Source of the DNA: Proteromonas lacertae
Taxonomy: Eukaryota
DNA: 64,000 nucleotides
Assembly: GCA_002245135.1 (NCBI GenBank)
Contig: NGBS01000021.1
Location: 62,001 to 126,000 of the forward strand
Reading direction: 5' to 3'
Position 1 is the first letter of the stretch; the number at the start of each line of letters is the position of its first letter. Positions 4,915 through 52,453 of the stretch are shown here, in pieces. The position numbers and the translations under genes are program-made. The notes beneath the pieces are model-generated. The model was not told the DNA's origin. It made no database searches and saw only the letters and a list, made by a program, of their open reading frames with translations.

Positions 4915-5432
4915 ATGAAACCATCTTTAGAGATACATGATGTACAAATATATATATTTATTTCTTTAGTTGTCATTACAATTAGTCGAAAATTATACTG
5001 ATTTGGACCAAAGCAAGTTTTTAAGTGAATTCATCCAAATTAGTGGAATTAAGGCTGAATGTGTAAGAATTACTAAGCAATGGACAATTAAAAACTCATT
5101 CTTGAAATTTAATTGTCTTCAAGATAGTACAGTAATTGACATTAACTTTGTTCAATATCTTTTTTTGCAAGGCAGATTGAATAATCTTTAATACATTAAT
5201 ATCTGAAGCATGTGCTACAGCTGTTGATCCAAAAGAAGAAATAATCAAACAAGTAAGTGAACACAAATATAAATCAATGACATACCCAATAGCAGCTGCT
5301 TACTACAATCAAAATATGGACCTTAGTGAAGTGACTATAGCATTGTTTTGGGGACTTTTTATATACTGTTCTTTGATAATCGTTGAAAGAATCTCCTGTA
5401 TGATTATTGGTACTAAGCCAAAGAAACCTTAA
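4915..5432 (+). CDS. Small protein with predicted C-terminal TM helix; unknown function
   Basis: ATG 4915, GT-AG intron ~4942-4969, U12-type intron from 5155, last exon ..IALFWGLFIYCSLIIV..KKP* ending 5432. Confidence 0.55.
5155..5200 (+). other. U12-type intron (AT-AT ending 5200, or AT-AC ending 5194)
   Basis: Starts ATATCTTTTTTT, branch-like TCTTTAAT; both ends restore the frame. The GT-AG alternatives I tested hit stops. Confidence 0.65.
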
Positions 5433-5556
5433 GAATATTAAGACTCTTTCAAGTTGTTTTTTTTTGTGTTTGGTATTTCATTATTTCTGTTATTATGAAA
5501 GGACAAAATTTGTGTTTTTTTGAATTTGTCAAACCTTTTTCGCATTTTTTAATAGA

Positions 5557-7343
5557 ATGAGTAATAACGATGGTATAATTGCTTGATTATGTTACTTTAG
5601 AACATTTGTTAGAATCAAATTATGAAGAACCTACAGTATGATCTTTTTTGCTACATTATTATTTTAGACTTCAAAACCACGTCCTAAATTGGTAAATACT
5701 TTATCAATATCTAATTCTTCTTGGAATTACACTGTCTTTTCATTTGCTTTCGGACACTTCTTAAATGGTATGTGTGCTGGAACTTGGTTTAGTTACTTGT
5801 TTGTATTCCTTAATTCTGTTCCAAGATTGAAATCAGTACCTGCAGGAATAGTTATGTTTAGTGGGCAAGTATTAACTTCAAATTCTTTTCATTTAGATTG
5901 CTGATGCTGTATCTACTCCAATAGCTGGATTAATTTCTGATAAAAGTAGCGGAATTAAATGGCTAAATCTAGGAAGAAGAAAGATGTGGATTTTTGTTGG
6001 TAGTATTATAGTAATAATCTCATTTTCTTTGTTATTTGGATTTAGTATTCCAAATTACATTTCCGATCGTATATTTTATATCTATACTATCATATTATTT
6101 AGATCCAAGTCAAGTAGTGTTAGTAATATATTGTGCTTTCTTTGCATCTACTTTTAATCTTGGATGGGCTTTAGTTCAAGTATGTCATATGGCAATGGTA
6201 CCAGAAATATCAAAAAGACCATCAAGACAAGTACTATTAAACAGTGTAAGATATGTAGGTGAAGTTGTAGGAAATATGGTTGTTTTTGTTGTATATTTAT
6301 TCATTTTTTTTATAATTATGGATTATAATAGGCAATGATGGTTTTAGTTGAATTTTTTGGTGATGCAAATGCAGATACAGAACATCAAAGAAATAAATTT
6401 ACTGCATTAACAGTAATCATTATTGTTAGTGGAATTATTGGTACAATAATATTTTTAATTGGAACACCAGAACCATATGGTCTAAATCAAATCAATGCAA
6501 GACCTTCTGAACTTGATATTGTAAGTACAAAGAGATATAAAGTGGAATGGACTTATTATTTTAGACTTCCAGAATTCTATTTTAGTATATATAATTATTT
6601 TATTGTTAGTTAATGGAGTTTATATGTGTACAAGATGCGTAATTAATGTATCACAAGTATATTACCCTCTTTATTTGATTCATTCTTTACAATTGACTGG
6701 GTTTGAAATTGGTCTTGGACCAATGATTGTATATATTAGTTCATTAATAAGTGCATATCTTTTTTTTGTATAATGATTAGATTATTTCTTTAATTCTCAA
6801 TTTTTACTGGATTAATGAAGAAATATAATGATATGTTAGGAAGAAAAGCAACTTATTCTACAGGTGTTACATTCTTCTGTATTGGATGTGGTTTATTGTA
6901 TTTCTGTACAACAAATACACTGTATTTGATGTATATTGGTATTATATTGATGGGAGCTGGAAATGCAACAATGTTAGTAACTGCTACTTCAATGGCTTCT
7001 GATTTAATAGGACAAAAGACTGAGACTTCTGCTTATGTCTTTGGTGCTTTATCTTTAACAGATAAATTATCAAGTGGAATAGTTATTATTTTACTGCAAA
7101 ATGTATATATTATTAATCTAGATTTTCTTATATAATATAGATTCTTGATTCAACAGAAGCATCAATGATTCCTAACTTCTATCGTATGTGTTTAGGTTTG
7201 ATACCTCCATGTATTGCAGTTGGAAGTATGGTTTTTGCGTATGTTGTTGATACTATATTATACTTTATAGAATTTTGATAGATTTTGAGAAAATAAAAGA
7301 TGAGGATATTCTACTTAATGCTGCATCATCCAATCGTTTTTGA
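5557..7343 (+). CDS. MFS transporter, MFSD12/GPH-like
   Basis: FGHFLNGMCAGTWFSYL, SGQ|IADAVSTPIAGLISDK..LGRRKMW, GWALVQVCHMAMVPE, AYVFGALSLTDKLSSG; about 7 GT-AG introns plus one U12-type intron. Confidence 0.9.
6755..6801 (+). other. U12-type intron, AT-AT termini (47 nt)
   Basis: ATATCTTTTTTTT...TTCTTTAAT-TCTCAAT; removal gives SSLISA|FTGLMKKYNDMLGRK in frame. GT-AG alternatives give stops. Confidence 0.75.
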
Positions 7344-7512
7344 TAGATTTTTTATTATTTTTGTATTTGTTTAGTATAATTGAAATAAATGATATGTGAT
7401 TTATTAAGATGAAATAAATCTATACATATTCATTTTTTTTTATTTTAATCGCCATAATAAATAAACCTTTAATAAATCAAAAATTCTATCCGTTTCATAT
7501 CAAATACAAAAA

Positions 7513-10500
7513 ATGAGACTGTTTTCATTTATCGTTTTACTTATTTTTGAAATCTGTAGAGGTGATCCTGTCAAATTGAATATATCAATACCTCTATTAG
7601 ACACAGATGAATACAGTAGACAAAGAAAATCGGTGTTTGAAAAGCTGAGTAACAAATTTAAAGATCACATCAATTTAGACTTATCTTCAACTCCCAATGT
7701 AAACGATGTTGTAATAAATATTAATGAAGAAGTGCATGATAGTTGCTATTTACAACTAATGGTAAACTCAGAATTGAAAGCAGTATGTGATAACAAGACT
7801 ATATATTTACATCAAATATATAATTCAGTAATGAATGGTATTTTTTATGAAATCTATATTGTAGTAATTTTTGTTGAATCTCGAAAAGTGAATCGTTTTA
7901 ACTATATAATAGTTGGTGAATTAGAATATGTAGAAATATTCAATAACTTGAAGATGTTTGTGAAGAATATAGGTTTTGGTTGTGAGATTTACACAGATTT
8001 ATCACAATTGAGAATAGAACTATCAAATCCATCATTCAATGATGAATCCAATACAATAATATTAGATTTTTATACATCCTATGAATTATTAAACGAGTTT
8101 TATTCAGTTTTCACTTCTTCTTTTCCTCATTTCAATGATTTAATCCACATATCCTTCTATTTAGATGAATATTATACAACCACATATCTTCCTTCAAATG
8201 ATTATTCAAATACATACATTGTATCATCTTATTTTGAATCAATTGACAAAGAAAGAATATCAGTAGAATTGGGATTAAATTCAAATGAAATTGTTGATAA
8301 AAGAATATATGGAACATATTTGTACTTATCATTTTTATTGTCATTGAATGAAGATGAAAAGATTGGTTTAAACAAAGAAAGATTAAAACGAATATTAGGA
8401 TTATTATCAAGAAATAAGATAGTAAAATACAAAGAATGGAAGATATTTGATCATAGTTTCATTGGAAGTAGTTACCTTGGTAAAGTGAATATAAATGGAA
8501 ATATAATAGATATAATCAATTTAAACAGTGATGTTGCTGAATATAAAAATGATTTATGGGAATATGGAGATGGAATTGTATGTATGAATGGAAAAGAAGA
8601 AAAAGAAGAAACAATATTGATTGGAATAATGAGTGGATTGAATGGATTAAACAAGAATTATGAAGATATGATAATTGGAATAATTGAAACAATTGATGAT
8701 ATAAATGTTAATAATAATGGTTTATTAAATAAACGAATAAGAATAGTATTATCCACAATGTCATTATCAATAAAAGAAAAATATGATGAATTAATGTCTA
8801 AAATCCGTTTCAATGATAATCTATTATAGTTCTAATATAATGTATGATGAACTAATAGAAGTGTTGAATGAAGAAAGTCCATACATATTTACAATAGGTT
8901 ATAATAGTGGTGAAATGTGTCATCCAAATATAATTCCAATTGGAGTTAATATTCCAAGTCAATTTCATTATTTAAAATCCTTATATGATGATGAGAAGAG
9001 AATATATTTGATGTATTCCAAGAGTGAATATGGTAAAAGAAGTAAAGATTATATAGAAAGAGATTTAAAAGAGAGAAATAAAGAATTGAAGAGTATAATA
9101 GTAGTTGATGATAATTCAATTGAAATGAGTAAAAGTATAGGGGAATTGAAAAATGAAATGTTAAATGAGAATGAGAATGAAATAATGATTATATGTGTAT
9201 TAAGTGAAGAATATACCAAACTGTTTATTGAAGAATTCAATTCTTACAAATTGGCACATCCAAATTTGCTAGTTTATTTGATGGATATAAATGAGAATGA
9301 TTATATTGATAATTCAAAATGGATTAATTATCATACAATTCATCCTTATATTGAATATAATCCATTACCTGAAAGAATAATGAATAGATTAGAAAAATAT
9401 AAAAAATATGAAGAAGAGAATATTCATTATTTCGAATATTTGGGAAGTTTATCAATATTATTATTTAATGAATTAGTAAAAGAAAGTAAAACAACTAAAA
9501 TGATAAATCTAAATAAAACAATGAGTGATATAGGAATCTCAATAAAGAAACCTAAAGTATCATTATTATATGAGAATTATATTGAAATGGCAATAAGTGA
9601 TTTAAAAACGAATGATAATTGTAGTTACACATTATCACATGATATTCATCCACACATTATTCAATATCCATCATATATTCATATATTATCAGATAATACA
9701 ATAATGAAATGTGATTGGAAATCTCCAAATTATGAAAGAAAGAAGAAGGTAGAATCAATAATCTGTTTATATGAGAATATTGAATGTTCAATGTTGTTTT
9801 ATGTATTTTCTTATTTCCAAACATCTTCACATTATGATACATCTGAATTTTATTATGAAAGAATGAATTTACCAAATATTGAAAATGATGAAAATGAATA
9901 TGAAATGAAATTTAACAAAATGATGGAAGTTTATAATCCATTGATAATTTATGGTTTTAGATCAATGAAAGAAAAGATGAAGATATTGTCTTTATTATCA
10001 GTTGATATTCCATTATTTAGTTTATATCCTTCAGAGGATGATACAACTATGTGTTATATAAATCTATTTAATATAGGGATAGAAACATCAAGTTATATAG
10101 AATCATCTTTGCCATTTGAATATTACAGATATAATATAACAAGATATTATTATATTAGTAATTCGAAATTAATAGATCAAAATGGAATAAGAAAGATGTT
10201 TATTTATTTTGATTATTTATACAATTCAACAGGATTTGAATATAGAATAGGTGATATTGGTAAAAATACAGTTGATGAAGTAATATCTGATTTAAGAGAT
10301 TATTTATTAGATTACAATGAAAGCAATATAATATATATAAATCTATTTAATGATGAATCCGATTTAATAAACGAAAAGCTGGATTTATTGTTGTTAAACA
10401 ATAGTAAAATCTATTTTTTGAGAATGAATTCTAAATTCTTTACAAATCCATCATATGAAAGAAAACATCAGTTCGTTTCTGATTATTTACATTCAACAAT

Positions 10501-13500
10501 GAAAAATCTAAACAAAAATCTAAAAGATTTTGATGATTCAATATTGCCAATACAAAATTCAATATATTATTTTATGTTATCTTCAGTGTATATATATTCA
10601 ATAATATAATATATTTAGACTGTATTCTTATGAAATACTCTCATCCAGTAGAATGATAAGCAAATTGAAAAACAAACATTTGATAGATATAATAAAAGAT
10701 ACCAAGTTGAAGATAAGCAATAACAGTATATTTTTATTATAGTTTAATTAATATATATTAATAGTTACATTATATTTTACTGATGATAATTACCTGTTAA
10801 AACCAATATCAATAATAACCAACAATGCAAATAATAAGAATAAACCAGAATTTATCAGAGAGTATTATAACTATAAAAGTGAATTTAATTCATATTATGA
10901 AGCACTAATAAATAATAATGTTAAAGGCCAAAGAATGTTTGGAATTGTAATAGATTCTAAAACCAGATTATATGAAAGTAAATCTTTGTTATTTGCATTA
11001 CAAAATGTAATATCATTTTATGTTGATATACCATTTCGAATATATGATGTAGGTGTAAAACCAATAACTGGTTTAATAGATTATTTTGAAAGTTATTCGC
11101 TAAAATTCTTATTTGGTGTATTGAGTAGAAACAATTTGCCAGAATTAGGAAGATTATTATTTGAAAAAGAAATTTATATATTCAATTATGGTGAAGTATT
11201 TCAAGATCCAAATTGTTATTATCAGATATTAAGTATGAATTCAATAGTTAATTATGTATCATTTATATCTTATTCATATATATATCATCATTACAAAGGT
11301 ATTTTAGTTGTATTTGAAAATAATGAAGAAGTAAATGAATTGAATGAATTTATAAAAAGACAAATGAATATATTTGAATGGAGAATATCAACTATAACAA
11401 TAGAAAGTAATGAAGATGCTTATTCAACTGCATCAAAAATAAAGAGCATAAATCATTCAGGTGGAAATATTATATTATCATTTTCAAATAATAAACTGAA
11501 TTCTATTTTATCCACGTTGAGAAGATTATTATCTCCAGAATATGAATTAAATATACTTAATTATGATATGAATACTCCATTAGAGAAAGTAATATTCTAT
11601 TCATATAACAATTTTATAAATACAACAATGGTATTTCCAACAGCAAAAATGATATATGGTGATCATATAACACAATTATTTGACAAAATAATGAGAGTTT
11701 ATATGGATATAGCAGTTGCTACAAATAATTATGATGATTTGTTGTTTATATTATTTTGGGAAGTGAAAACATTAACTCAATACAATTATATAATTGAAGA
11801 CTATGAAATTTATAATGGAAAAGACAACTTGGATATAAGAATTCCATCTTTTTCAACTATATTCTACAAAAAAATTAATATTTATTATATCGAATGTATA
11901 TTTGATGATGGAGTTAAAATAGAAGCACCTTATGTTCACAGAATGGGATTATTGTTAGATAATCCTTCAGATTATAAAGATATATTAGTAGGTATGGAGA
12001 GCAAACTAATCACTGCAATATATTCACCAATTGAAGATTTGCTTATACCAATATTCGATGAAGGAAATTCTGAAGAATTTGTTGATAGAATTAAACAAAG
12101 TATGTTTGTAACTACTTTCTTTGGAATTACTTCATACAAGAATAAGATGTTATTAAATGATCATTTAAATACAAATGATAATCTTCTATATTTCATTGGT
12201 AATTCATTATCAATTGATTGTCTTAAGAATGTAATGATAAGTGGAATGCATATTATGACAATATTACCTTCTTTAGTAGGATTCACACATAACTATTGTT
12301 CATCAATAATTATCTTCTTTGAAAGTGAAGCATATCCAATAAAAGATTATAAAACCATAATCGAAGAATTAAAATATCATTCAGTAGTAATTACAAAAGT
12401 ATATTATATTGATAAAGAATCAGTTATACATCAATCATTCATAGATGAAATAAAAGGATTATTATCAGATTTAAACATATGTATTTTTAACTTTATGAGT
12501 GAATGGAGTTATGAATTTATATCCCATTTAGATAATGAATATAAAAATATTAAAAAGTTTTCAGTTGTGCATATAGGTTTAAGATGGGGTAAAGAACTGA
12601 TACTACCCAAACATTTCAATCAATACTTTATGGTGGGTTATCCTATAACTAACTTAGACTTATTTGATAGAGTAATTAAACCATATTATTATTATTATAA
12701 CAAATATGAATTACTTACAGAAAAATATATGCATATGTTTGTAATTACATCATTGTATAAAAATTATGTATCAAAGGTTGATCCTATGTTTTATTTTGAT
12801 TTTTATAAATCTTTACATTATACAATTTATTCAAACGATGATTTATTAGCAGCAAGGTATTTTTCTGAATCAAATAGTTTAGCTGTCGATATGAGAGTAT
12901 ATAAAGATGAAGGATATGATGAAGAATATAACCAAAGAAAAGTGACTGAATTAAATTGGGTTTTTTATACGTACTATTCACCTTACCCACCAAGATATCC
13001 ATTTAAATGTGATTGGAAAGATTCAAAAAGTGATAATATTACAAAAGATCCAGTTCTTTCATTTGGTTTTATATTTGATATATCTGGTAAACAAAAACTT
13101 CCTGATTATAGTTTGATGGTTGGTGGTATTAGCCTTATAATAGGTACAGCATCAAAATATTATTCAGTATCTTATGAAATTTATGATACAAAATCAACTT
13201 TAAGTGGTTGTATATCTGGATTAAAATCAATGTTAGATAAAAAGATTGGATTTATTATATTTGGTCATAATAATTATGATTGTTTGATTGAAGCTGAGAA
13301 AATAATCAATTCTCCAAAATATATTGATTTTGATGTTGTATTATTCTATCCTAACAATTTTCCAGGTGATTTTTGTGATAAAAGAATAGTAGTTGGTGGA
13401 ATGATACCTAATGAATTCTTTAATCCAACAATGTTCTATTATATAACTGAAAATCCCGAAATAGAAATATCATATTTGTTATATGATTCAAGATCAGCTG

Positions 13501-16500
13501 AAAGTAAATCATATAAAGAAGTATTAACATCATTTCTTAATCACTCTCCAATTTCATTTGTTAGTTATGATATTACAAAAATATCAAAGATAGAATTTGG
13601 TAATATAATAATGAATAAACCAGGTATTGTTTATGTAATTAGTCCAGTCAGTGATGAATTAGTATATTATGTTAGTCACTTGCATTATATAAATGCTGTC
13701 AAATCCAATATATTGACATTTGTTACAGTTTGTGAAGAAGAATTGATATATTTTGAAGAAGGAAGTGTAGAAGATTTCAATATAATTGATATATCATTCA
13801 GTGTAATGTTTTATAAAATTGATTTTACAATTATATATGTCACTCCATTTTTACAATTCAATACAAGTTCATTGACAAAGACAACATATATGTTGATGAA
13901 TTTTGTTAAGGATGTGACATCATTTCAAAGATCTCCAACTGCTGCATTAGAAATGATTAGTATTATGTTTGATTATAATAATGATGATGGAAGTAATAGA
14001 ATATTTTACAATAATTATATGAATAAAAGAGCCAAGATAGGTAGAATTAATAAATATAATAAAGTAGATGAAGTATTATTCATATCAAATACCAATGAAG
14101 ATCCTGATCCTTATTATCATCTCTATGATTATAATACAGATAGATGTGTTTTTCGAGGTTCATTATCTAGTTTTAAATCAGCAGGAATAGTAATTTTAGT
14201 TGATTATGAATATGATTTAGTTTTAAAACATTATGTATTTTTCTTATTGGATAGTTTTATGAAAAAAGAGATAAATGGATATAAATATAAAGGTTATGCT
14301 TATATAATATCAAAAGAAGATGAATGTAGAAATGAATTAGAGAAATATGTAAAACATGAAGATATAAATGTTTTAATATCAATAAATATTGATGTTTGTT
14401 CTGAATCCTTATTTACTGAATATGACAAATATAACAAGACAATATGGTTAGTGACAAATAGACCAGTCGAAACTCGTTTATATAATGTAATTAATACTGG
14501 ATTATCAATAACAAGTACAATTAGACCAGTAATAATGCAATTAATATTAAATAGATATAATAGTCCAGTATTAATAATTGTTCATCCAAAATGGAAGAAA
14601 TATTATGAATGGGTTGGAAAATTAATTTCAGAATATGGTCTTAGAATAATAGATGTGATATATTCAAATGATGAAAATATAATTAATAAAGAAGTAAATA
14701 ATTATGTGAAAGAATATTCAAATGGTTTTCATTTGTTTATAGAAGAGAAATCCATCATATTAGAAAGAATAATTGAGAATGTGAATATCAATAGTAATAA
14801 CAATAAAGATGGTTTATTTGATTTTGTATCATTCATTGAATCTCCAGATTACTTTATAGATGATCCTTATTATATAAGAATAGGAACATATTTACATCCT
14901 GCAACAGATGAAGATATGTCAAAATATCCATTATTCTTTAATGATTTAAGTAGAAGATTTAGTGATGGTTATCCACCAATATACAGTTCAATTTATATAT
15001 CGTTATTTTTTCAAGAATATTTGATATCACTTACAGGTTCTCCTAATCTTGATATTTCAATTAGGGATATTTTATTATCACTCCCATTACCTTCTATGGA
15101 AGGTCCATTTTCTTTGGACAGAGGAAATAACTTAAGGAGAAGATTATCAATTGCCTATTCTCCAAAAGGAATCTACACTGAATATTATCTGAATAATACT
15201 GATAGTTATATGAATTTATTTGATGCTTCATATAAAAGTATATCAATTCCAAATTGTAATAATAATCCATGTGAATATAAAAATATTGATGTAATAAAAA
15301 TTGGTTTAATAATTCCAAGTATTAATGAATCTGAAAGAGTGATAAACTCAATTCTTCATCCATTCTATTTAATAGAAAAATATTTCCATATTAATCGATT
15401 TATCCCAACAATAGATGATAAAATGTATTATCCAATTTTACATGTTTGTAATATATCAATAACCAAAACATTTGTAGATTGTGTGAATGAAGTATTAAAT
15501 ATTACTGAAGTATCTTACTTTGTGACAAATTTAGATTATGTAACTAATGAAGGAAATTATGCAAATAGATCATCATATTTACCAAAACATTCATTTAGAA
15601 ATGGATATAGATTTGACTCAATAATATTCAATATTGGTCATACATTATCAGATTATAAAAGTCCATTTTATTCATTAGGAGCATCTGTAGATTCAATGGC
15701 AAATGAAGTATATCTTTCAATAATGAAATCAATAAAACGAGATGTTTATATATTGAGTTACTCTAGAAACAAAATTTCTAAGAGAATAACCTCTTTATTA
15801 AATCAAATATTCATATCATCAGGAAATAATATAAATATAATTGAATATGATAATCCAAGCAAGTCAACAGAAGTATTAAAAGGATGTTATAATTCGTCAT
15901 CTTGTGCTTTTATTAATACATTACCATGTTCAATAAGTAAAAATGTTATGAAAGAATTCAATGAAAAAGGAAAATGTTCAACATATTTCTTATTTCAAGA
16001 TATAGTAACAAATGATAATTTAGAATGTAGTTATGAAGGAACTTATATAGTTCAAGGATATATTTCATCTTTATTAGATACTGATTATTCATTTATAGGT
16101 GAAACAACAAAACAATATGTAGATATTGTAAATTTATATTTAGGAGACTCATACAATATGTATGAAACAAACTGTTATGCTTATGATGTAATATTAATGA
16201 CATTAAGTTCATTTGAAAGAGTTGATAGATATACAATTGATACAGTAAATAATAATCTATTATATAAAGAGTTTGAAAGTGCAAGTGGAACAATATCATT
16301 TGGAGATAGTAATTTGATAAATAGAAACATCTATTTTGCTGAAGTAATTTCTTCAAAGAAAGTAGAAATGATAACTTATAAAGATTTATATTCATCTATT
16401 CCAGAATTACAAGCGTCATCAGAAACAAAGAATGTTTATATTGGTTTGTTGTTAGATTTTGGAGCAAATGAAGAGAGTTTATCAAAACATTTAGTATCAT

Positions 16501-18542: not shown

Positions 18543-18575
18543 TATAAACATAAAATATAAATATTATGTATTTGA

Positions 18576-21500
18576 TTATATATTTTGTGTTTTATGTGTT
18601 TTTCTTCTCTTTTCAGCTTCTTCTTTCTTATTTACTATTAAAATATAATATTAATTATTTATACTCATTATTTTTGCTATATCACTAAGAGATTTCCCTT
18701 CATTCATCTTTCTCTTTTCCATTTCAAATTTCTTTTTCTTTTCTTTCCAATAATTCTTTGAACAAAATGAATTCATAAAACTCAATTGTAATTTAAATGC
18801 TGGAAATAATAATAATGGTTGACTTATATGTAAATTATTAATTGTACTGAAATCGACATCTCTTGTTGGATTTATATATTTATCTATATCACTACAGATT
18901 TCATTCACTTTGAATTCTTGACTGTTGTTTTCATTCAATTGATGAATTGTTGTTAATAATTGTTCTTTTGTTATTGAACCTTTTTGATTTTTATCATATA
19001 ATTTTATTATCATCTTTAATATTTCACTTTCATTTAATAAACAGTAAGGGCCAATTGTTTTTAATGCATTACATAGCGTTATGTGAGTTATTGATTCTTC
19101 TCTTGTATAATATTTAAATAGTCTTTTACTATATTCAGTTATTGGTTCCTATTTAATTAATAAAATAATAATAACAAATGATTGTTATATATACTCCAAT
19201 ATAATTAAACAATTCTTCCATTGTTATAAATCCATATCCTTTATTATCGATTTTATTAAAACATTTTTCAAATTGATTCATTTCATCTATATTCATTTCT
19301 AATTTATCACATTCATTTTGTAATTTCTTTAATTCTTCTTCTTTATATTTCATTAATTCTTCTAATTTCTTACTTGCTTTTTCTTTTATATCACTCAATA
19401 TATAATCTTCTGGATATTTATCCAGTAATTTATCTATATTTACTATTTCATTTTCTATATCAGAGATTCTAGTAAAATCATTATAACTTGGAATATTTCG
19501 TTTATAATATTGAAACCAAATATGAGAATCTTTATCTAATCCAAATTCACTTAAATCAATATCCATTTTCTTATAATGTTGAGAAGATAATTCAATGATT
19601 CTATCACTACCTATTGTTAAAGCAATATTAGATATAAATTGATCAGTTCCTCGATTAAACCATACATTAAACTAATAAATAAATATTAAATAATAATTAT
19701 AAAATATATACTCCATTTTCACCTTCTACTAATTCTTTTCTTTCATAAAAAGAATATTTATAATCACTCATATTTACATACAATTTATTATCTTTTTTAC
19801 TATGAGACAAGATCATCTCACTTATAAATAAAACTATTAAAATAGATAAACAACATTTTTATACATGGATCTTCACATTCTGTATACCACATACTGATAA
19901 CTTCCTTATCATTATATTTCAATGTTCCATTCACTTGAGTATAATAAGGTAATTTCATTTTTTGATTCCTCTTTTGTTCTTTTACAAAATTCTTCATCTC
20001 TTCTTCTCCATATAATATTATAAAATCACTTATTCCTTTTACACTATCATCTGCTGTTGGGATTACAAATTCTTTTAATTTCTCTTCATCACTTTCACTT
20101 TGAATTGAACTTAATGAACCTATTGCTCCGAATGTAAATGGAAATATTTCATCATTATGTTGTAAAAATAATGGAGTAAAAGATTTCTTTGATACTATTC
20201 TCAATATATTATAACAATAATTATAATTATACACATTTTCTTCAACTCTTCATCATGTTTCTTTAAATCTTCAATATCTTCTTTATTTAAGGAGAATTTC
20301 TCTCGTAGTCTTCTTTGTTTTGTTCTTACTTTTTCTACTGTCTGTTTTGCTTCTTCATATTGTTTATCTAATGAAGGATTTCCTAATGGAATTTCTACTT
20401 TATGTAAATCTTTCACTTTCCATGGTTCTGTTTCATACAATTTCGTCCATTTTACTACTGTATACATCAATCTTTCATCTCGATCTTTTAATATTGGAAC
20501 TACTTCTTTCTCTCGACTTACAGTATAAGCAATATCTTTGGATCGATATTTTGTTTCACTTTGACATAATCGATCGATTTCACCTACTATCAGATTTCTT
20601 TGATCTATCAAGTGTGATAATTTTATTGAGTTTAAATGTAATTGATTCGCATAGTCACAATTATTGTGTTTTTCTAAGTTATGTGGATCTAATGTTACTA
20701 CAATTGTTCTGATTGTACCTCGAAATGCATTGATTGTTTCTAAAAATTGACATTTCTCAGCAAAATATTCTTCTATGTGACTTTCTCTTACATTATCATT
20801 GAATAATTGAAGAATTGTATCATTTTCCCAAATAATTAAATAAAATTAAGAAAATGTTTAATGTAAAAATATTAGGGTTTAAAAAAAAAGATATTAATTT
20901 GTCCACTTAAATCTTCTTTCATTCTCAAGATTTCTTCTTTTCTATACCAATCTAATTTTCTGATCAATTTGAACCGTAAATTTTCATGTTCTAATTCATG
21001 AATAACTCTTTTTATTTCATGTTTTATTACAACATCAGGTGATATTTTCTTACTGTATTTTTCTATTTCAACTTTTTCTTCATTTAAAAATTTCAATTCA
21101 GCTTTCATATCAGCCAATTTCTCTTTATTTTTTTCAACTGTTACATCATATTCTAATTGTTTTATTCTTGTGTCAATTGTGTAATCAATTTGATCAATTT
21201 GTTTTATTGAATAAGATATATCTCCATGAAGTGTTCTTAATACATTTTGTTGAAGTTTTAATTCATTTTTTCGATTGTATAAATACTTCATTTGAGCATT
21301 TGTTATGTGTCTATAAATATCAAACCTTTTTACTAATCTTTCATGATAACTATACATTAAATGATTATACGTTATATATATACTCTAAATAGACTTGAGC
21401 TAAACGAACATAAGGCTGTAATAATTGATAAGTTGCTTCATCTCCTTTTTCTTCTGCTGTAAACATTGCTTTATCTAATAAATGACAATTCTTTTGTGCT

Positions 21501-24500
21501 ATTTGATAATTCCTTTCTTCCAATTTATCTATATATAAACATAATAAATATATAATAAAATTAAATAAATACATTCATAATAATATATTCCATCAATTTC
21601 ATCTAATTCCATCAACTTACTTTCATAATCACTCCATAAATCTCTATAAATGTAACTTTTATCTTCACATTCTTTCTTTTGAGCTACTTTATGCTCACTC
21701 TTATATTTTCCTTCTTCTAATAAATTCCTTAACATTTCTCTTCGTTTATCTGTTGGAGTATCTTCAGGTACTTGAGCTAATGATCGAGTGATGTGTTTTC
21801 GAGTTAAATATCCTCTAACTATTCTTTCTATTGCTTTAGCTGCTTCATTTTTCCTTTTATTAAAGTCTTCTTCTTCTTTCTTTTTTCTCATTTCTTTATA
21901 TATTTTTCTTCCTAAAAATCCTCGATAAGTACGTTGTACGAATATTGCTGCTTCTAATCGTTGTTTATTTATATCAACTAGTGTAATTTTTGGCTTTAAT
22001 ACTTTCGATTTAAACCCTTCTTTCATCATTCTTTGCTTGTTTTCTTCATTCTCTTTAAGTTTATTCAATTCTTTCTTTTTCATTTCCAATATTTCACTTT
22101 CTTTATATATCTTTTCTATATCTTCATTGATTATTTTCATTATATTTTCTAAATCATTTGTATTGTTATTGACAGAAGGATTATATTCAATATTTGATTG
22201 AAGAAATTTATAAGCAATATTTGTTAAATCTCGAAGGATTTGATTAACTGTACCATTATGTAGACTTAATTGAATTTGAATAAGATTTTTTGATAAAATA
22301 ATTCTTTCATTAACTTTTAATTTTGCTTTCCATAATACACATAGTAATGGATTTATTTCATTTATTAAATTCTTAAATTCAGGACTTTTTCTGTGATTAA
22401 ATATCATAAACTTTAATATTTCACATTAAATAAGAATTAAAGAAAATATATTCAAAAAGAAAATGAAAAAAAAATGATATGTCATTTTCAATTAATCTTT
22501 CAACTATTTGATTAATATATATTTCATGTTTCGTATCATTTGGATCAATAGATAATTGAATTATATTTATTGTTAATTTACATACAACATCTATCATATT
22601 CTCTATATTATTCAATAATAATAATCCAATATTCTCAGGTAAATATCTACTAATTAAAGTTTGAATAATATAACTCTTCCAATTATTTACTCTTTTATTT
22701 GCTAATTTGTGAATACGTTGAATTGAATTGGTTATTATATATCTTTGTTCAGAATCAGCTGGCATTTTTACTGAATTTAATGTTATAAATACATTTCGAA
22801 TTCTGTCTATTAACATATCAAATGTTCCACAATCATATCTTAAATAATCATTTTCTTTTGGTTCATTGATTTGTAATTGATATAATAACTTGATATGAGA
22901 TTGGGCTTCAGCATTACTATCATATATTATACCTCTTATTCTTTGCATATCTCTTCTTCTATTTACTTCAGTTTCTTCTAAACATGCTAATTTTCTCTCA
23001 CCATATCTTACATACGCTCTTCTCAGTATCAAAATTAAAGAAAAATAAATAATTAAAAAGTTATAAATTTAAAAAAAAGATATAATAATCTTGAATATCT
23101 TCACTTAATTCACATTGTACATCATAATCTAAACAATATTGATAATATAACATTGGTGCAACTCTACTACGATAAGTGGCTTGGATTTTCATTGCTTCTA
23201 ACTCTTGAATCACTGTGTATAATACTTTTCTTCTTCTATAATGCCAAGCTTGAAGTAATAATCTCAAACCTCCAGCTCGATTATTATCAAGCCTAATCTT
23301 ATTGGCTACTTTAATTGCTTGTTTCTTACGGAATAATGTTTGAATATTTATACATAACCTTTCAATTATTGACATTCTTTCTGCTGCTTTCTTTTTTAAG
23401 TCTTTTAATATATTTTTAGCTTCAACTTTTAGCGTATAATAATACCAAGCCATAGATATATTCATAACGGCTAGTCTTTCAGTATTAATTCTTTCTTTAT
23501 ATAAATATTGATAATATTTAGACATATTTCCTTTATAATCAAATCCAATTCCATTAACAAATAATTGTAAATCATCTCTTTTGTTATTGCAATATTTATA
23601 TAATAAACTAATCATCTCTTCATTATCTTCGCTATTGACAGTGTTTGTACAATCAAATATTCGAATAAATGAACAAACTAAAAGAATATGATTTAATGAT
23701 TCAATACTCACTTTAGAATTGATTAAATATAATTCATATAGATTATTATTAAAAGGAATTGTATTACCACTAACATACGTATTACATAATGATAATCGAT
23801 GAATATAAGGATTACGTTGGAATAACGAGTCTATGACTTCATCATTGATATTATTGGTTATTGAACTATCGAATGATTGTATTTCTAAATCTGTTATTTT
23901 AGTACATTTATTAATCAAATAGTAAATACAATCATTGGATAAAACATTGTAAGTTCCAACTTTTAGATACTTCAAATTCACTAATTCACCAAAATATTTA
24001 AATGATATATCCGTTACACCACTATCACAAACGACTAGTTTTTCAATATTTGGACTAAAACATATTAAACTATAAATTCCACGATCTGAGATATTCCAAA
24101 TGCCATTCATATATAATTCATTTAAATTATATAATGGAGTATTTATATTACAAAAGCATTTATCAGTAATTTCATAGATTCCTTGTATATTGATATATTT
24201 TATTGTCTTTAATAAGAATAACAATTGAATTGATTTATCAGTAAACTGTTTATTATTGGAGATATCTATTGATTCAATATTTAACATAAATGGAATTGCA
24301 TTAACCAATCCTTTATCATGAATATTGACAAGATTGTTTGCAATTACTTTCTATTAATAAAAAAGATAATAAGTATATATATATATATACTTTAACATTA
24401 TTCTGAAGTCTAAAAAATGTCAAAAATCCAACATCTGTAACTTGATTACAATTGGATATATTAATGGTCTCTAAACATACACAAGCACTTCCTAATATAG

Positions 24501-26245
24501 CCAACATTCTATCATCTAAATTATTGTTATTCATTAAATTAATCTCTTTGATAGATGTATGTAAAAACAGAAATGAAGTGCCAATGGTGGAGCTTAAACA
24601 ACCTGATGTTATTCTATTACAGCCATCAATATATAAATATTTCAATTCTTTTACATCATCTAATATTTGGTAGATATATTCATCAGTAAAGTTGTTATTG
24701 TTACATAAATAGAGTGTTTCAATATTTACACAATCTATTAATATTATAATAATAATATATATACTTGCTAAATAGATGAGTGTTTCATTCGTTATTTGCT
24801 TATTATCACTTATATTGACATATTTCAACTGTCTTTCGAATTTATTACACAATATTTCAATGGAATAGTAAAAAGAAATAGAATTAAATAAAACTAAATA
24901 TCTTCATAAATATTTATATTTATATCAAAAAAAAGGATATATCTGTAATATTCTTACAATTAGATAAATTAATATAATTGATTTTATTCAATGCATTTAT
25001 TAGTTTAATCAATATTTCATCATTAATAACATCATTATTACTCAAATCTAATTCATTTATATTTTTTCCATATTCACAGATAATATCATAACAACCTTCA
25101 GTTAATTCAATATGATAAGGTAAAACCAATTTATTTATCTCATAATTACTCATCTATATATTATAATTATATATTTATATATTTATACTATTTCCTTCAA
25201 TATTTCTTCATCAAAAGTCCAACAATCAGTTTCTATAAAATCAATTGGTTTTCCAACTTCATATTTAGTATTCAGCCATAATCCACCTTTATCTTCACGT
25301 AGCATGTAATATTTATGAATCATTTCAATTGGAAATAACGATCCTTCAGGGATTCTAGAAGGTGGAGGCATTCTAAATAATAGAAAATAATAATTATTAA
25401 TATTATACAAGTAAAATAATGAATCTGATCCTATTCTTACATCACAACATCTTTTCTTCTTTAATCTATTCATTATTATTATATAATTAATACTTTTCTG
25501 AATTCACACCATAGTTTACTAAATCATTATATGTTACTATTTGATAGTTTTCATTATTATTTGATGATGATGTTGTTGTTACTGGTCTGCTTGATGTATT
25601 ATAGAATGGAGTGGATGGACTGATTGTGTTGGTAGTTACTGTTGTATTGGACCTTGCAGTTGATTCTGCTGAATTATTATTGTTGTTGTTAGATTCATTG
25701 GATGTATCTCTATTTGAAGAATTTTGTTTGTTAGTTATTGTTTTGGTTTTGGAGTTGTTGAATTCTACTGTTGTATTGTTATTGATGAATAATATGTTAT
25801 TGGTAGAAGGAGAAGACTTCGATCTGTGGATTTTTGATTTTATGAAATTATTATGTCTTCTTTTTATACGATTATTCTCCTTTATATATGGCAAATAATG
25901 TTCTTCAAAATGACTGTAATTGCATTCTTCTTTGTGTTTCTTTTGAAATTTATCATATGGTCTATTCATCATAAACAAATAAATATATATATTATTTAAA
26001 TAATACGTTTTAGGCCTATTTTTATCCTTAGTTTTAGGTAATTTGGTTGAAGTATTTGCTTCTTTAGGATGCTTTTTTCCATATTCATCTATTGGTTGAT
26101 CTAATAAATAAGCTGTGCTAGGTCCCGAAGTTTTAGTTGAGTCTCCTCTTGACAAAAGCATTCGCAAATTTTCACGAGATTTAGCTGTGTCTGACATAGT
26201 AATCACATTTTCATCTTTTGATTTTAATGTGTTTGATTTACTCAT
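18576..26245 (-). CDS. Large LRR (FBXL/AMN1-type) + IQ motifs + coiled coil + EF-hand protein; single multi-exon gene
   Basis: All track ORFs from 26245 to 18576 join in frame using ~13 GT-AG and 4 AT-type introns. LRRs (LSNCKNITD, ISNCNQVTD), IQ motifs (AAIFVQRTYRGFLGRK) and EF loops (DNKGYGFITMEE, DKNQKGSITKEQ). Confidence 0.75.
20836..20894 (-). other. U12-type intron, AT-AA termini (59 nt)
   Basis: ATATCTTTTTTTTT...TTTCTTAAT-TTTATTTAA; no AG acceptor nearby; restores LSGQI|IIWENDT frame. Confidence 0.7.
22426..22480 (-). other. U12-type intron, AT-AA termini (55 nt)
   Basis: ATATCATTTTTTT...TTCTTTAAT-TCTTATTTAA; an in-frame TAA means the exon cannot start before TGT; gives IEND|CEILKFM. 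Confidence 0.7.
23026..23083 (-). other. U12-type AT-AC intron (58 nt)
   Basis: ATATCTTTTTTT...TTCTTTAAT-TTTGATAC; gives IQDY|LRRAYVR in frame. Confidence 0.85.
24868..24940 (-). other. U12-type AT-AC intron (73 nt)
   Basis: Canonical ATATCCTTT donor, ends TTTTAC; restores the LRR LSNCKNITD|YSIEILCNK. Branch site weaker (TTATTTAAT). Confidence 0.85.
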
Positions 26246-32440: not shown

Positions 32441-32857
32441 TTATGCAATTGTTACTGTTTCTCTTGTTGTTATTGCAGCAACTACTTCTGGAGAAGTGCA
32501 AATTCTTCCTACTTTCACATCACTCTCTTTCAATCCGTAGTGAACTACACAAGTCTTGCATGTTGCAATTTCAACACCTATAATAAGTAATATTCATTAA
32601 ATAATACCAAATTCAGCCATTTTCTTTAAACTGTCAATTATTTCAGCATCTTCAGAATAGGCTAATTTGGCAGCTGAATTGAGGAAAATTAACATTCCTG
32701 GTACTTTTTCAGTTTTTGATAAATTAGCTAAGAAGTTTTTCATCAATTTTCTGCCTAAATCTTCATCTCTTCCCATAAACTCACTCTCGAACAAGAATAC
32801 CTATATTACAATAAACTAATCACTTTAATAGGGTACTTTGTTTGTTACTGAAGGCAT
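32441..32857 (-). CDS. DsrE-fold protein resembling the C-terminal domain of bacterial selenium-metabolism YedF
   Basis: After removing introns 32801-32836 and 32578-32607: MPSVTNKVFLFESEFMGRDEDLGRKLMKNFL..LIFLNSAAKL..GVEIATCKTCVVHYGL..VGRIC (CxTC motif). Confidence 0.75.
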
Positions 32858-33021: not shown

Positions 33022-33930
33022 TCAATCAAATTCTTCTTCAAGTTGTCTTTCTATTTCATCATATTCATTTATTAATTTATTTGTTGTATGAATATCTAAA
33101 ACTTAATAAAAATAAAAAATACTATTCTGTAGAAGAAATACAGAATTTAATGGATGTAAAGGTATTTGAGGAAAGAAATATTTCACTAGCAAATCTCCAA
33201 ATATCTAAAAATAATAAAATCAATGAATAGAAAAAGAAAAAATAATTCGACAACGATGAGATTCGAACTCACGCGGGAAAATCCCAATGACTTAGCAGGC
33301 CATCGCCTTAACCACTCGGCCACGTTGTCATAAAAGATTTAAAGAATTTTATATTCTTAAATCATACCTCATTTGTAAATTCAGTTTCTTTGTAAAGCAT
33401 TTCTAATTCAGAACTCAAATTCATTCCTTCTTCTCTACTAACTTCTCTTGTATTTGAAAATGATGTAGTTACATTATTGGCTATTAAAAAGTTGAAAGTA
33501 TGTCTGTTAATATTCACTATATTGAATAGTCTCTTTATTCCTTCAAATGATTTTCGTTTATTATCTATCAATGAATTATAAATCAATAGAATTATATACA
33601 ATCATAAATAAATATTATTCCAGCTGCATCAGAGGTAAACTGAGGTAAAAGTCTGTAATATTTTTCATCGGAAGGACAATCCCAATACTGAATTTTTATA
33701 ATAAAACCTGCATATGAATAATGTTTTGACTATACCAGCATAATAACATATAAACATACAAAATAATTTACACATGCTGGATACTGTTTATTAATTGAAT
33801 CAGGAGTTGCTCCTTCCTCTACACAACTAAAATAACAACACATACGTTTAATAAGTGTAGTTTTCCCTACACCACATGCTCCTATAACTGGTATTTTCAT
33901 TACAATGTGACTACTATCTTTTGCATCCAT
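33022..33930 (-). CDS. Divergent Rab-like small GTPase
   Basis: P-loop GACGVGKTT; G3 region IQYWDCPSDEKY; REVSREEG; 4 GT-AG introns; no C-terminal Cys. Confidence 0.7.
33248..33329 (-). tRNA. tRNA-Ser(GCT), inside intron 33205-33367 of the Rab-like gene
   Basis: GACAACG acceptor, TGGCCGAGTGGTTAAGGC D-arm, ATGGC-CT-GCT-AA-GTCAT anticodon arm, long variable arm, GTTCGAATC T-loop, T-run terminator. Confidence 0.95.
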
Positions 33931-40300: not shown

Positions 40301-43300
40301 TTAAACTAATGAATATTATAATCTATTTATGCTACGTATTACAGTTTTATAAAAAATGAAACGATCAAATTATTTTATACTTAGAATTCTTGTCTTTATA
40401 ACCACATCTAGGCATCTACATAATAAAATAACCATATCAACACCTTCTACTTATTTTATTGATTGATATTTTATAGTTAAACCCTCCAAAAAACAATTAA
40501 CAAATAAAATATGATGTAAAAATAATAGTATTAATCTATAAATTGGTTTTTAATTCGTCAAAACATTTTGATATCCTTTGTTTCTTAACGTCATTCATAT
40601 TGCAACATGATCTGTATAGTTTATTAAGTTTTCTTTTGAATTTTGTTGTCATTAATTCTTCTTTTTTGTCACTATCTATAATATTTTCAGTGATATTCAT
40701 CGAAGTGTCATTAATGACTGAAACTTGAAAGGCTGGAGACTCTTCAAAATGCATAAATGGACAAAGATCTTCAATTCTAGTTGCAGAATATAATGAAGTA
40801 CCTGTAATGAATGTACTTTTACTGTTTATAGGATTTAAAACCTTTATTTTTTCAAGAATATCAGCCAATGCTAACCTTAATTTTACACTATGGTCTTCTT
40901 CTGGTGGTAATAATTCTAGAACTCTTTCGAGCTTCGCCATTTGAGTTACAGTAGGTATTGTTGACTGTTTCCAGCAATTGATTACTGTTGAAGATTTCAT
41001 TTCATTAAATACAGTTGTCATATAAACAATCGAATCTGCAATATTAGGAGTTTTACCAAATTTCAATCCACCCATTCCATTTTTTACTTTTATTCGTCTA
41101 ATTTCTTCGAAATTGTCAATAGTTTTCACACATTCATTGAGGATTGATGTCTTGTAATTGCCCTTCAAAGCACTAATGATACCTTGATCTAGAGGCTGTA
41201 ATTTAGCAGTTGTATTTGGGGGTAAATATATGATTTCCAAATTTTTATACTTATCTTTTGATAATTCTTTCGGATGTCCACTGAAGTTATCCATTATTAA
41301 TAATATTTTACTATCTCCTAATGTTGACGTTACTGCTGGCATAAATATTTCATCAATCCAATAAATGAAAACAGTCGAATCCATCCAAGCATGATGTTGA
41401 CTGGTATAACATTTCGGAACATCACTGAAACAGTTTGGTTTTTTGGCCTTTCCAATGAACAATAATGGAATATATACACTGTTATCCATGTTGACTGTGA
41501 CTGCTATAGATATTCGTTGTTTAGACATCTTAAAACCTCGAAAATCTGATTTTTCTACATTTTTTACAACACATTTTTGAGGTAATTGCTGGTAAAATAG
41601 TGAGGTTTCATCCATATTGAAGATATATTTAGGCTCATATTGACTCATTACATCTTGTATTGGCTTTAGATTCACAGTACCTACAGAGAAAGCTTCTCCA
41701 TGTAATACGATACAAGATAAACCATTTCTTTTCATGAATCCATTTATATAGCTTTGACTTACTATAGCTTTACCTACATTATTCTTGTTTAGTATCCTAG
41801 CTTCACTTAATAATAAACTTTTCGTGACAGGAATATGTGTCAAAGGTAGTTTTTTATAAGCTTCATCAAACCATATCTTCAAACCTTTTTCCAATTTAGG
41901 GTTTTGTGTTTTTTTTTCTCTTTTAATAGTAGCCATGTATTTATCACAGTCAAAATACTTCATTATTGTATCTCTATTATAAAGCCAGTTAGTAATCGTA
42001 GAGTTAACAACATTCAATTTTGCCATCACCTTAGCTCTTGTTGTTTTCTTGTTATCAAGCTCATATACAGCCTCTGCTTTCTCTGCTAATGTTCTATTAT
42101 TGCATTTTCTAGTAATAGTTGAGTTTTGACAAGACATAAAAGGCGCTTTGTTCAAAAAATTCAAGCCGAGCCAAGAGAAAAGAAAAGGAATAAATGTAGT
42201 CTAGTCTTATTTAGTGAAATAAAATTCATATTTTGTGTCAACATCGTCAATAGATGTTGAGAATATCTACGCAGAAATTGATCATCAAGCTTGTATGTAC
42301 CATTTATTAAATTAGCACTTTATTGTTTATTACATCAAATCAGCATAACAATTATAACAACAATATAAAAAATATTACGGATTTAAATTACTGTTTCACT
42401 ATTTATTTTCGATTTTCTAACTTCTTCATCTCTATATACATCAATAACATTATTCATTTCAAATTAGATTCTTTTTAATGTAAAACCTATTACTCCATAT
42501 TTACTTCTAATCATTCAATTGAAAGATATATATCAACCAATTTACATTATTAAATGTATTGTCTTATCTCATACACTATTTCTGAATAACTTATGTGCAT
42601 TATTTCCAACAATTATGTTTTACATCATAACTAATAGTAATGTTGTGATTATACTAGCGTATATCATTTTTCATCAACCAGAACAGTGGTTTTACAGCTT
42701 ACATTTCATTCAACTGTATAGACATCACATTATTTGGTATTTTCTGAAGGTAATGTGTAATTATAGATTATTCTTTTCTTATTAAGCTGAATATTCATTG
42801 CATTTACTCCATTTACTTCATTTATTATCAGTTTCTGAGGTTGATTTCACTTATTCTTAGAACATTATCGAAAGTCAAAAAAACATTTACTATATTCACT
42901 CCAATTACCATCAACACAAATACTAAGTCTCAATCTACTATAATAAATAATTTAATTCCCAAACTACTCCCAAATATTTCTTATAATTTCTAATCTCTAT
43001 CAAATAACCATTTTTATTATTCTGCATACCTATAGAAATAAAATAAAAGCTATATACTTCATAATATATTAAACATTTACTCATTTATTTTAAATGAGCT
43101 ATAAAATAATAATACTTGTAGAGAATGTTATGTAACAAAGAAAAGTTTTAAAATTAAATACCCCAACTTAACACAAAATGCAAAAACTTTGAAAGAAAAA
43201 TGGTTCAAGTTATAAAAATTCAAGTTAAAGGTTTTTGACTGTATTCAAAAGTGAATAGAATAGAATTATTTTCTATTATTGATTTATCAAGCATTTTAAA

Positions 43301-50920: not shown

Positions 50921-51019
50921 CTCATTTGGTTAAATATTATTTTTTATATGTAAATTTATTGGATAATTACACAAATAAAACATAATTCAAGTAATAAATA
51001 TAAATAAAATGACTACTAA

Positions 51020-51355
51020 CTACAGATTTAACTGCTGATGAATTTTCTTATCCAATTTGCTTTCAATATTAGATAAACGAGTGTTAATATTACTTGACAT
51101 TGTTTCTATATCATTTATATCATTACTTAGTGTTGTGATTACTTTCAACGAATTCTCTACAAATATTGATCTTTTCTTCATATCTACATCTTTTATTTCT
51201 ATATAGGAGTAAAATTATTGTTTAATACTATCGATTAACTGTTTCATTTCTTCATCAATCTTAAGTATTGTTTCTTGACATTTTTCAATGTTAGATAAAT
51301 ACTCTTTTGTAATTGGTTTTAATTTTTCAGTTATTTGCCCATCAGTTGAAGCCAT
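51020..51355 (-). CDS. Small coiled-coil protein (possibly BLOC-1/Snapin-like)
   Basis: ATG 51355, one 30-nt GT-AG intron, ~100 aa heptad-rich; not in the ORF track. Family call is tentative. Confidence 0.5.
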
Positions 51356-51491
51356 AGAAAAGATTTTATAATCTGGTGATTTTTATTTATTCTGAAATTT
51401 TTGAAACACCACACAAATTTAAAAAGCATATATTACATATTGTAGTTATTTTATCAAATTAATATTGTCATATACGTAATGTTGTTATCTT

Positions 51492-52453
51492 TTACTCTTC
51501 AATATTCCAATCAATTGGTTCTAATCCTTTCGATTTTAATGCTTCATTACATTGAGAGAAATGTTTACATCCAAAAAACCCATTAGAAGCAGATAAAGGA
51601 GAAGGGTAAATAATTAAGGATGTTAAATCATAAAAATAATCAAAATGAAAAAAGATATGTGAGCACATTTCAATATAATGTGTTTGCTAGTATCCAATAA
51701 CTTTATTTTTGTCTATATAATCATAAAAATATAAAGTTATACTTGCGCTGGCTTTCCCCATAACATAAACACAACATTCTTTTTCTCTTTATTAATTGTC
51801 TTGATTATTTCATCAGTAAACTTCTCCCATCCTTTACCTTTATGTGCAAATGCTTTTCCCTTTTCTACAGTCAGTAAAGTATTCAATAATAACACTCCTT
51901 CTTGATTCCATTTAATTAAACTGCCTGACTTTGGTACTTTCAATCCAATATCTTCATGAGCTTCTTTAAATATATTTACTAAAGATGGTGGTTGTTTAAC
52001 TCCTGGCATGACTGAGAAACACAAACCATGAGCTTGATTAGGTTCATGATAAGGATCTTGACCTAATATTACTACTCTAACTTTATCAAATGGACATAAT
52101 TTCAATGCATTAAATACATATTGTCGAGGAGGATAGATTATTTTCTTTGCTTGTTCTTCTGCTTTTAGAAAATTCTATTTGTTCAATATAATTATTAGTG
52201 TAGCATTATACTAGTAAATTCTTGAAATATGTTTTTTCTGTTTCTGGTTGAAGAAATTTCTTCCAACTGGGATCAACATCGAAAACAAAAGGTTCAACCC
52301 AACTTTCTGGTTGTTTAATCTTTAGGTATAAAAAAATATAATTGATACAGGAATATCTTCACTTTCAATTGGTTTTTCTTCCTTTTTAGCCTTTTTAGCA
52401 GGTTCTGAAGATTTGAAGAATGAAGTAACAGAAGATTGTCTTTTTGTTGACAT
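51492..52453 (-). CDS. UNG: Uracil-DNA glycosylase (family 1)
   Basis: N-terminal PIP-like [50 protein letters not shown]. Confidence 0.95.
51606..51658 (-). other. U12-type AT-AC intron (53 nt) splitting UNG motif H|PSPLS
   Basis: ATATCTTTTTT donor, TCCTTAAT branch, TATTTAC end; exact removal yields KCAH-PSPLSA. Confidence 0.95.

Follow-up and report, generated by a model that had tools for sequence, protein, structure and literature searches.

Seven predicted AT-type introns in four genes

We analysed a 64,000-nucleotide (nt) stretch of contig NGBS01000021.1 (positions 62,001 to 126,000; assembly GCA_002245135.1, deposited as Proteromonas lacertae), called the window hereafter, whose GC content is 25.4%. 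Four of its 22 genes carry introns that start with ATATC followed by a run of T residues. There are seven of these AT-type introns, and they are likely to be U12-type introns, the class served by the minor spliceosome. The host genes are the following:

4836..5432, + strand: host gene 1, encoding a small protein that has a C-terminal hydrophobic stretch and probably a signal peptide; two GT-AG introns and one AT-type intron
5557..7343, + strand: host gene 2, MFS transporter; eight GT-AG introns and one AT-type intron
18576..26245, - strand: host gene 3, predicted 2,314-residue LRR/IQ/EF-hand protein; four AT-type introns among 17
51492..52453, - strand: host gene 4, uracil-DNA glycosylase (UNG); three GT-AG introns and one AT-type intron

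Host gene 1 matched no Pfam family and our searches found no homolog of it. An ESM Atlas search with host gene 3 gave only weak leads to helical-repeat proteins, and an exact look-up of 10 open reading frames (ORFs) of the window returned no match. The predicted AT-type introns, designated below by the position of their first base, are as follows:

5155..5200, + strand: probable AT-type intron, 46 nt, AT-AT, phase 2; with an AC end, the length is 40 or 64 nt
6755..6807, + strand: probable AT-AC intron, 53 nt, phase 2; a 47-nt AT-AT version is likewise in frame
20836..20894, - strand: most likely an AT-AA intron, 59 nt, phase 1; 56-65 nt, all in frame
22426..22480, - strand: AT-AA intron, 55 nt, phase 0, donor ATATCA
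23026..23083, - strand: AT-AC intron, 58 nt, phase 1
24868..24940, - strand: AT-AC intron, 73 nt, phase 0, canonical ATATCCTT donor and weak branch site
51606..51658, - strand: AT-AC intron, 53 nt, phase 0, branch site TCCTTAAT; splits H/PSPLS of uracil-DNA glycosylase

An initial annotation of this DNA had reported these seven starts, in the form ATATC(T/C/A)TTT, and had considered the introns necessary to keep the reading frames open. Both points were borne out: the coordinates and strands are correct, all seven starts read ATATC(T/C/A)TTTTT, all seven introns lie on the sense strand of their genes, and retention of any one of them brings in a stop codon and a frameshift. The motif ATATC-N-TTTTT is found 10 times in the window, against 1.9 +/- 1.5 occurrences expected from an order-4 Markov model or 2.4 +/- 1.9 from an order-2 model. 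Of the three further matches, that at 42661 falls in a transposon, that at 11655 lies antisense to a long ORF, and that at 63998 is at the window edge. At the latter position, on the - strand, a canonical ATATCCTTTTT donor stands two bases off the edge, and an eighth minor intron is possible there. Intron phases are 0 in three cases, 1 in two and 2 in two. The terminal dinucleotides are AT-AC (four introns), AT-AA (two) and AT-AT (one), those of 5155, 6755 and 20894 being subject to ends that are not uniquely fixed.

The strongest case is that of the UNG gene, whose junction we scored with a profile of 119 UNG homologs. Removal of the 53-nt AT-AC intron gives 347.6 bits, whereas the unspliced sequence reaches 282.8 and the highest-scoring of 21 GT-AG or GC-AG rivals 280.0; it thus scores 67 bits over any canonical rival and rebuilds the sequence H-P-S-P-L-S. 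At 24940, intron removal rebuilds an LRR unit according to a pattern written for this analysis, to which three further units of host gene 3 conform; the GT-AG rival at 24957 fails to do so. Canonical rivals of 20894 are at least 122 nt long, have odd donors and cost at least 21 residues. Together with 22480 and 23083, which find a match in relatives (see below), these sites are five firm cases of introns that are not of the GT-AG type. The other two, 5155 and 6755, are probable.

We then consider assembly artefacts, or chance motifs beside frameshift errors. The window does contain apparent 1-nt frameshifts at ~8820 and ~4455 and a TGA at ~28973, and donor and branch words occur by chance on the antisense strands of its AT-rich genes. 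However, all seven introns are on sense strands, the UNG gene demands that exactly 53 nt be taken out, and two of the sites appear to be common to relatives, as described below. We therefore regard an artefact as scarcely credible.

Intron density was computed with a denominator that combines the 84 GT-AG or GC-AG introns predicted by a gene model, for which the window itself served as training set, with 12 GT-AG introns located by hand (12 of the 13 motifs tried matched). This gives ~96 GT/GC-AG introns, in agreement with the earlier estimate of 90-100 canonical introns and ~7% of AT-type; the share of the latter is 7/~103, or 6.8%, and the exact 95% interval for 7/100 is 2.9-13.9%. The gene model picked six of the seven AT-type introns, and the gene of 5155 scored under its threshold. 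Its seeds contained AT-intron motifs, so that the picking of six is not independent evidence. Two additional AT calls of the model, at 38438 and 52782, were rejected, as they lie inside ordinary GT-AG introns.

The AT-type introns form a separate class

The seven introns differ from the 84 modelled GT/GC-AG introns in several respects. A C at position +5 is present in all seven and in 1/84 of the others (p = 1e-9), and a C-containing branch motif in 6/7 against 0/84 (p = 1e-8). Their lengths of 46-73 nt (40 nt as the minimum should 5155 end at AC) are above the 33.5-nt median of the major class (p = 2e-5), in line with the greater length noted initially. Their 3' ends are never TAG, the acceptor of 83/84 major introns. 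A branch-like site had been noted in six introns at 7-10 nt from the 3' end; six do carry a branch motif, of the (T/C)C(T/C)TTAAT type, but it ends 7-13 nt before the intron end. The exception is 24940, with TTTAAT only, 15 nt before the end. At donor position +6, five introns have T, one has A and one has C, giving the exact ATATCCTT. The canonical final C of the branch site is absent in all of them, and none contains an exact TCCTTAAC. As noted initially, there are no GT-type U12 introns among the 84 modelled ones; the only one that starts with GTATC has no branch motif.

An extended donor and a branch site near the 3' end are described as hallmarks of U12-type introns (PMC3584512). Our introns share with the canonical ones (Turunen et al., PMC3584512; consensus taken from the Physarum preprint cited below) the RTATC donor core, the TTAA branch core and, in 4/7 cases, AT-AC ends. 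They differ by changes from C to T, both at position +6 of the donor and within the branch site, and by the lack of a visible GT-AG subtype. The reference signals of the class are a [G/A]TATCCTT donor, a TTCCTT[G/A]AC-like branch sequence and ends that are AT-AC, GT-AG or one-off dinucleotides; the preferred ends of all seven introns fall among these. AT-AA and AT-AT are reported as the commonest non-canonical ends of minor introns in animals (PMC10639083). Because the +5C, the branch motif and the length set the AT introns apart, they are likely to be U12-type. If so, the ATATC(T)TTTTT donor would be read by U11 and then by U6atac, U12 would recognise TC(T/C)TTAAT as the branch site, and a 3' end would be chosen at A-C, A-A or A-T 7-15 nt downstream of the branch. 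The shifts from C to T at both signals may most simply represent drift in a 25% GC genome, with introns of 9-22% GC, that is tolerated by G-U wobble pairing, and such tolerance would make compensating changes in the small nuclear RNAs (snRNAs) unnecessary.

The alternative that the AT introns are removed by the major spliceosome deserves attention given the unusual donors of the major class. Among the 84 modelled introns, T occupies position +4 in 84/84, A position +3 in 83/84 and G position +5 in only 5/84. GTAT donors make up 82/84, and they differ from ATAT at position +1 only; a model-free check yielded 35/58 GTAT against a 14% background. U2-type AT-AC introns exist. AT-AC ends have been described as not exclusive to U12 introns (PMC3584512). 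Nevertheless, the +5C, the T-run, the branch motif and the length separate the two classes, as do the 3' ends, and Blastocystis subtype 1 (ST1) possesses all minor-spliceosome components. Processing by the major spliceosome is accordingly a highly improbable alternative to U12-type splicing.

The near-invariant GTAT donors have a possible explanation of their own. In ST1, the positions after GT vary freely, and a preference for +4U has been described as accompanying loss of METTL16 or SNRNP27K (PMC10581693). In PMC12129017 (supplement 10), the METTL16/PsiM entry has 0 members in all three AT-rich Blastocystis isolates and 1 in ST1, while the wider METTL16/PsiM family has 0 in two of these three isolates and 1 in ST1. 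The GTAT donors would fit a loss of METTL16 in the genome of the window.

Comparison with Blastocystis

The initial annotation had mentioned minor introns in Blastocystis relatives, which is right: 346 U12-type introns have been reported among 35,412 in ST1, i.e. 0.98% (Gentekaki et al. 2017, PMC5608401). Its general baseline of well under 1% is, by the same count, too low for this group. All minor-spliceosome components are reported in ST1 (PMC5608401, section 8 and supplement 12), and such components are also listed for ST7 (supplement 12). Larue and Roy (2023) counted 253 minor introns in ST1, 77% of them AT-AC, with a mean length of 42 nt (PMC10639083).

Like those of the window, the ST1 introns have AT-start donors, are short, have a branch site near the 3' end and show mixed A-N ends; several can occur in one gene, in a background of ~30-nt GT-AG introns. 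There are also clear differences. In the ST1 sheet of the intron table (PMC5608401, supplement 32), the donor is ATATCC in 336 of the 339 AT-donor rows and ATATCT in 3/339, whereas ATATCT with a long T-run is found in 5/7 of our introns (Fisher p = 3e-8). Because of this skew, we consider the proposed donor shift to be real in comparison with ST1. The branch site here is TC(T/C)TTAAT, with a final T, while by eye it is mostly CCTTCAC or CTTAAC in ST1. Lengths are 46-73 nt here and 36-63 nt in ST1, mostly 37-43. A tally by eye of 129 of the ST1 AT-donor rows gave AC ends in 79, AG in 40, AA in 7 and AT in 3; AT-AG ends thus account for 40/129 in ST1 and for 0/7 here. As a side observation, this AT-AG pairing has been called disfavoured in a review (PMC3584512), and the CCTTCAC branch is frequent in ST1. 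Lastly, the local share of 6.8% contrasts with 0.98% genome-wide in ST1.

With its 25% GC, canonical stop codons and introns of 25-51 nt, the window resembles the AT-rich Blastocystis isolates of PMC12129017. The U11/U12-25K protein is listed for all three of these isolates and for Proteromonas (supplement 10), in a noisy table that misses 25K in ST1. The main text on these assemblies mentions neither 'U12' nor 'minor'.

Two intron positions appear to be old

The exon at 22424-23068 of host gene 3 was searched against 1.84 billion representative sequences, which gave three matches. Two of them are real, P0121 (78% local identity; 76% in the alignment) and P0122 (40%), and both are ORF calls that run into introns. 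The third, P0123, a fish repeat protein, is a chance match and was excluded. We aligned the exon with P0121, P0122 and four cluster mates of P0122 (40-43% identity). At the 22480 donor, all six relatives have the sequence I-S-F, the translation of ATATCnTTT, directly after a shared I-E-N-(D/K), and they diverge beyond it. At the 23083 donor, I-S-F is found 14 codons before the exon start in 4/4 distant relatives that reach upstream (of five), and the intron implied at this position in the relatives is ~43 nt long. The chance of finding I-S-F at a given place is ~3e-4. P0126 is nearly identical to its cluster mates and departs from them only beyond I-S-F, which is what a one-base change, an indel, would produce in a T-run that is not coding. 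The five distant relatives represent one lineage, and the comparison therefore involves two independent relatives rather than six.

Both testable positions thus appear to be shared with a relative at 41% identity. The position comparison proposed at the outset has in this way been carried out for two sites, with sharing apparent at both from protein read-through. The seven introns also have no common interior sequence: 19 of the 21 pairs are no more similar than shuffled sequences at the 5% level, the two others having p = 0.035-0.04. We found no terminal inverted repeats or target-site duplications in them. In ST7, 11/12 of the ST1 minor introns are reported lost (PMC10639083). Because of the shared positions, the lack of transposon signs and this loss in ST7, inheritance of old introns with uneven loss appears to be the simpler reading.

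If a transposon-like introner had recently caused a burst of gain, the explanation put forward for Physarum, uniform T-run donors would be accounted for, and the window does contain a pogo-like DDE element. However, the absence of shared interiors, inverted repeats and target-site duplications, and the two positions apparently shared at 41% identity, make such a burst very unlikely. The same observations are among the reasons why the lineage-specific expansion that had been proposed with the U12-type identity and the shifted signals is not demonstrated here. Of that proposal, the identity is well supported from sequence and the donor shift holds.

Taken together, the seven ATATC stretches of 46-73 nt in four genes are, in our judgement, probably U12-type introns for the minor spliceosome, inherited from a Blastocystis-like ancestry rather than recently spread. 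Several observations weigh against this reading. An Rfam scan of the window (E <= 1) detected two tRNAs only and no U11, U12, U4atac or U6atac. The weakest of the seven introns, 5155, has a rival 37-nt GC-AG intron that starts at 5172, and 6755 has a rival GT-AG intron, also of 53 nt, that starts at 6768; both rivals end with AAG, an end found in 1/84 major introns. Homolog searches returned no named Blastocystis match, so that the taxon is inferred. The donors of the relatives were deduced from protein read-through, not from DNA, and I-S-F fits ATATC without proving it; moreover, age could be tested at only 2/7 positions. Finally, the count of seven argues for a genome-wide rate above our central estimate, as discussed below.

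For 6755 itself, 53 nt is probably the right length rather than 47, given the AC end and the gene model. Searches for MFS homologs of its host found nothing; the spacing that we take to be usual in the MFS transporter family likewise favours 53 nt.

Genome-wide rate or local hot spot

To what extent the density of the window reflects that of the genome was examined with the first 130 of the 339 AT-donor rows of ST1 (rows 3-12,010 of 36,254; PMC5608401, supplement 32), with row order as a proxy for genome order, as assumed from the consecutive accessions. AT introns per 100 introns are overdispersed in ST1 (variance/mean 1.5). Seven or more per 100 are found in 0.45% of sliding windows and in 1/120 bins, against 0.012% for a binomial distribution, six per 100 in 1.1% of sliding windows, and five or more in 3.1%. 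Two ST1 genes, OAO18147 and OAO17624, have three minor introns each. A 1% genome like that of ST1 thus yields windows like this one, rarely.

With the ST1 dispersion, a rate of 3-7% makes a count of seven 16-30 times likelier than a rate of 1.07% does; for a rate of 2%, the factor is 7. The excess is weak at the gene level, however (4/22 genes against 319/6,544 in ST1, p = 0.02). Four of the seven introns come from a single gene, and the ~40 introns between 25 and 51 kb include none of AT-type. Given that single gene, the 7% of the window is likely to combine a genome-wide rate somewhat above the 1% of ST1, which we estimate at 1.5-4%, with local clustering. In our judgement, which is based on a prior centred on ST1 and allows for the window having been flagged because its density was high, a rate of 1.5-3% is the most plausible, if just short of probable in its own right; 3% or more is a lesser but serious possibility, and ~1% is unlikely. 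The enrichment is suggestive, its base being one window and one four-intron gene.

A chance hot spot in a genome with the ordinary Blastocystis level of ~1% would resemble the local runs of ST1, where rows 9023-9085 contain 7 AT-donor introns (7/63) and rows 3369-3476 also contain 7 (7/108). In addition, larger intron-rich genes are reported to carry more minor introns (PMC10639083). Nonetheless, this explanation is rather unlikely, as it requires the top 0.5-3% tail of the ST1 distribution.

Conversely, the genome may be rich in such introns as a whole, with AT-type introns making up at least 3% of the total (about a thousand or more), second only to Physarum, following an ancient gain or retention from an intron-rich ancestor. 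The 7/~103 of the window, a density that ST1 reaches so seldom, the likelihood ratio of 16-30 and the spread over four separate genes speak for it, and given the fast loss in ST7 it may be the human subtypes that are depleted. On the other side stand the four introns in one gene with the gene-level p of 0.02, the introns lacking over 25-51 kb, the flagging of the window for its high density, and the two sites that may be canonical, five per 100 being reached in 3.1% of ST1 windows. We thus regard genome-wide richness as conceivable but tentative. The local runs of 7/100 in ST1, the clustering in one gene and the gene-level p also tell against taking the lineage-specific expansion discussed above as demonstrated.

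Two metagenome scans were performed for related sequences. With an exon of host gene 3, 571 pattern matches were obtained, none of which was confirmed. With a donor-branch-AC pattern, 118 stretches were found in 10/64 parts of the data, with no evident intron-bearing relative; all were screened by composition and flanking frames, the one examined proved antisense to a gene, and they were treated as background.

Comparison with Physarum and other genomes

The richest genome reported is that of Physarum polycephalum, with 20,899 U12 and 154,299 U2 introns (bioRxiv 10.1101/2020.10.12.336362). The reported shares of minor introns are ~12% in Physarum, 0.98% in ST1, 0.55% in Basidiobolus and ~0.3% in vertebrates (PMC5608401, bioRxiv 10.1101/2020.10.12.336362, PMC10639083), and those given in these sources outside Physarum are ~1% or less. 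Physarum resembles the window in its +6T donors, altered branch motif, AT-AA and AT-AT ends and high share. In contrast with our introns, which are of AT-type only and have a near-canonical branch site, those of Physarum are reported to be mostly GT-type, with a TTTGA branch and a compensating U12 snRNA. They also have transposon-like ends and mostly unshared positions, while here no transposon signature is seen and two positions are apparently old. The share in Physarum is genome-wide, whereas ours is 5-7/~103 from one window. Our literature search found no report of the present enrichment, subscription papers and bioRxiv supplements being outside its reach.

Other features of the window

A very large, nearly intron-free gene on the + strand at 7513-18542 encodes a class C G protein-coupled receptor (7tm_3) domain at its end. 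A Pogo/Tc5-like DDE_1 transposon, which has terminal inverted repeats and a TA duplication, occupies ~39957-43257. It seems to have entered a coding exon of a large gene (34.3-50.9 kb) for a SPRY/HECT E3 ligase. The apparent 1-nt frameshifts at ~8820 (+ strand) and ~4455 (- strand) and the in-frame TGA at ~28973 (+ strand) interrupt genes that are unbroken elsewhere. They lack intron signals and may represent assembly errors, broken alleles or readthrough. Two tRNA-Ser genes, at 38314-38395 (+ strand) and 33247-33330 (- strand), apparently lie within unusually long GT-AG introns (~174 and 163-182 nt, respectively), each on the same strand as the surrounding protein gene. Two intron-bearing genes look bacterial: one at 32441-32776 (- strand) codes for a small protein, presumably DsrE/YedF-like, and the other at 57622-58670 (+ strand) for a member of the homoserine O-acetyltransferase family, as confirmed with the ESM Atlas. 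Finally, 63800-63920 is a non-coding stretch of higher GC content, in which GGGGCA-type words recur and which has no Rfam match. It was dropped as an snRNA candidate, as its folding is no better than that of shuffled sequences (z = -1.3).

Implications

An annotation restricted to GT-AG introns would truncate genes; that of UNG, for example, would be cut short at the catalytic motif. Should the genome-wide share be ~1%, the finding is of modest weight, namely a known class of introns with T-shifted signals. If it truly amounts to several percent, this would be a second minor-intron-rich lineage besides Physarum. As a tentative proposal, an AT-rich Blastocystis-like lineage may have 3-7% of minor introns, all of AT-type, T-shifted and old, in which case the Blastocystis ancestor would have been the richest after Physarum and the human subtypes would have lost most of theirs. 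Larue and Roy left open whether the Blastocystis minor introns were recently gained and called for more genomes (PMC10639083). The two positions apparently shared at 41% identity point to old introns, and the question of gain is now directly testable.

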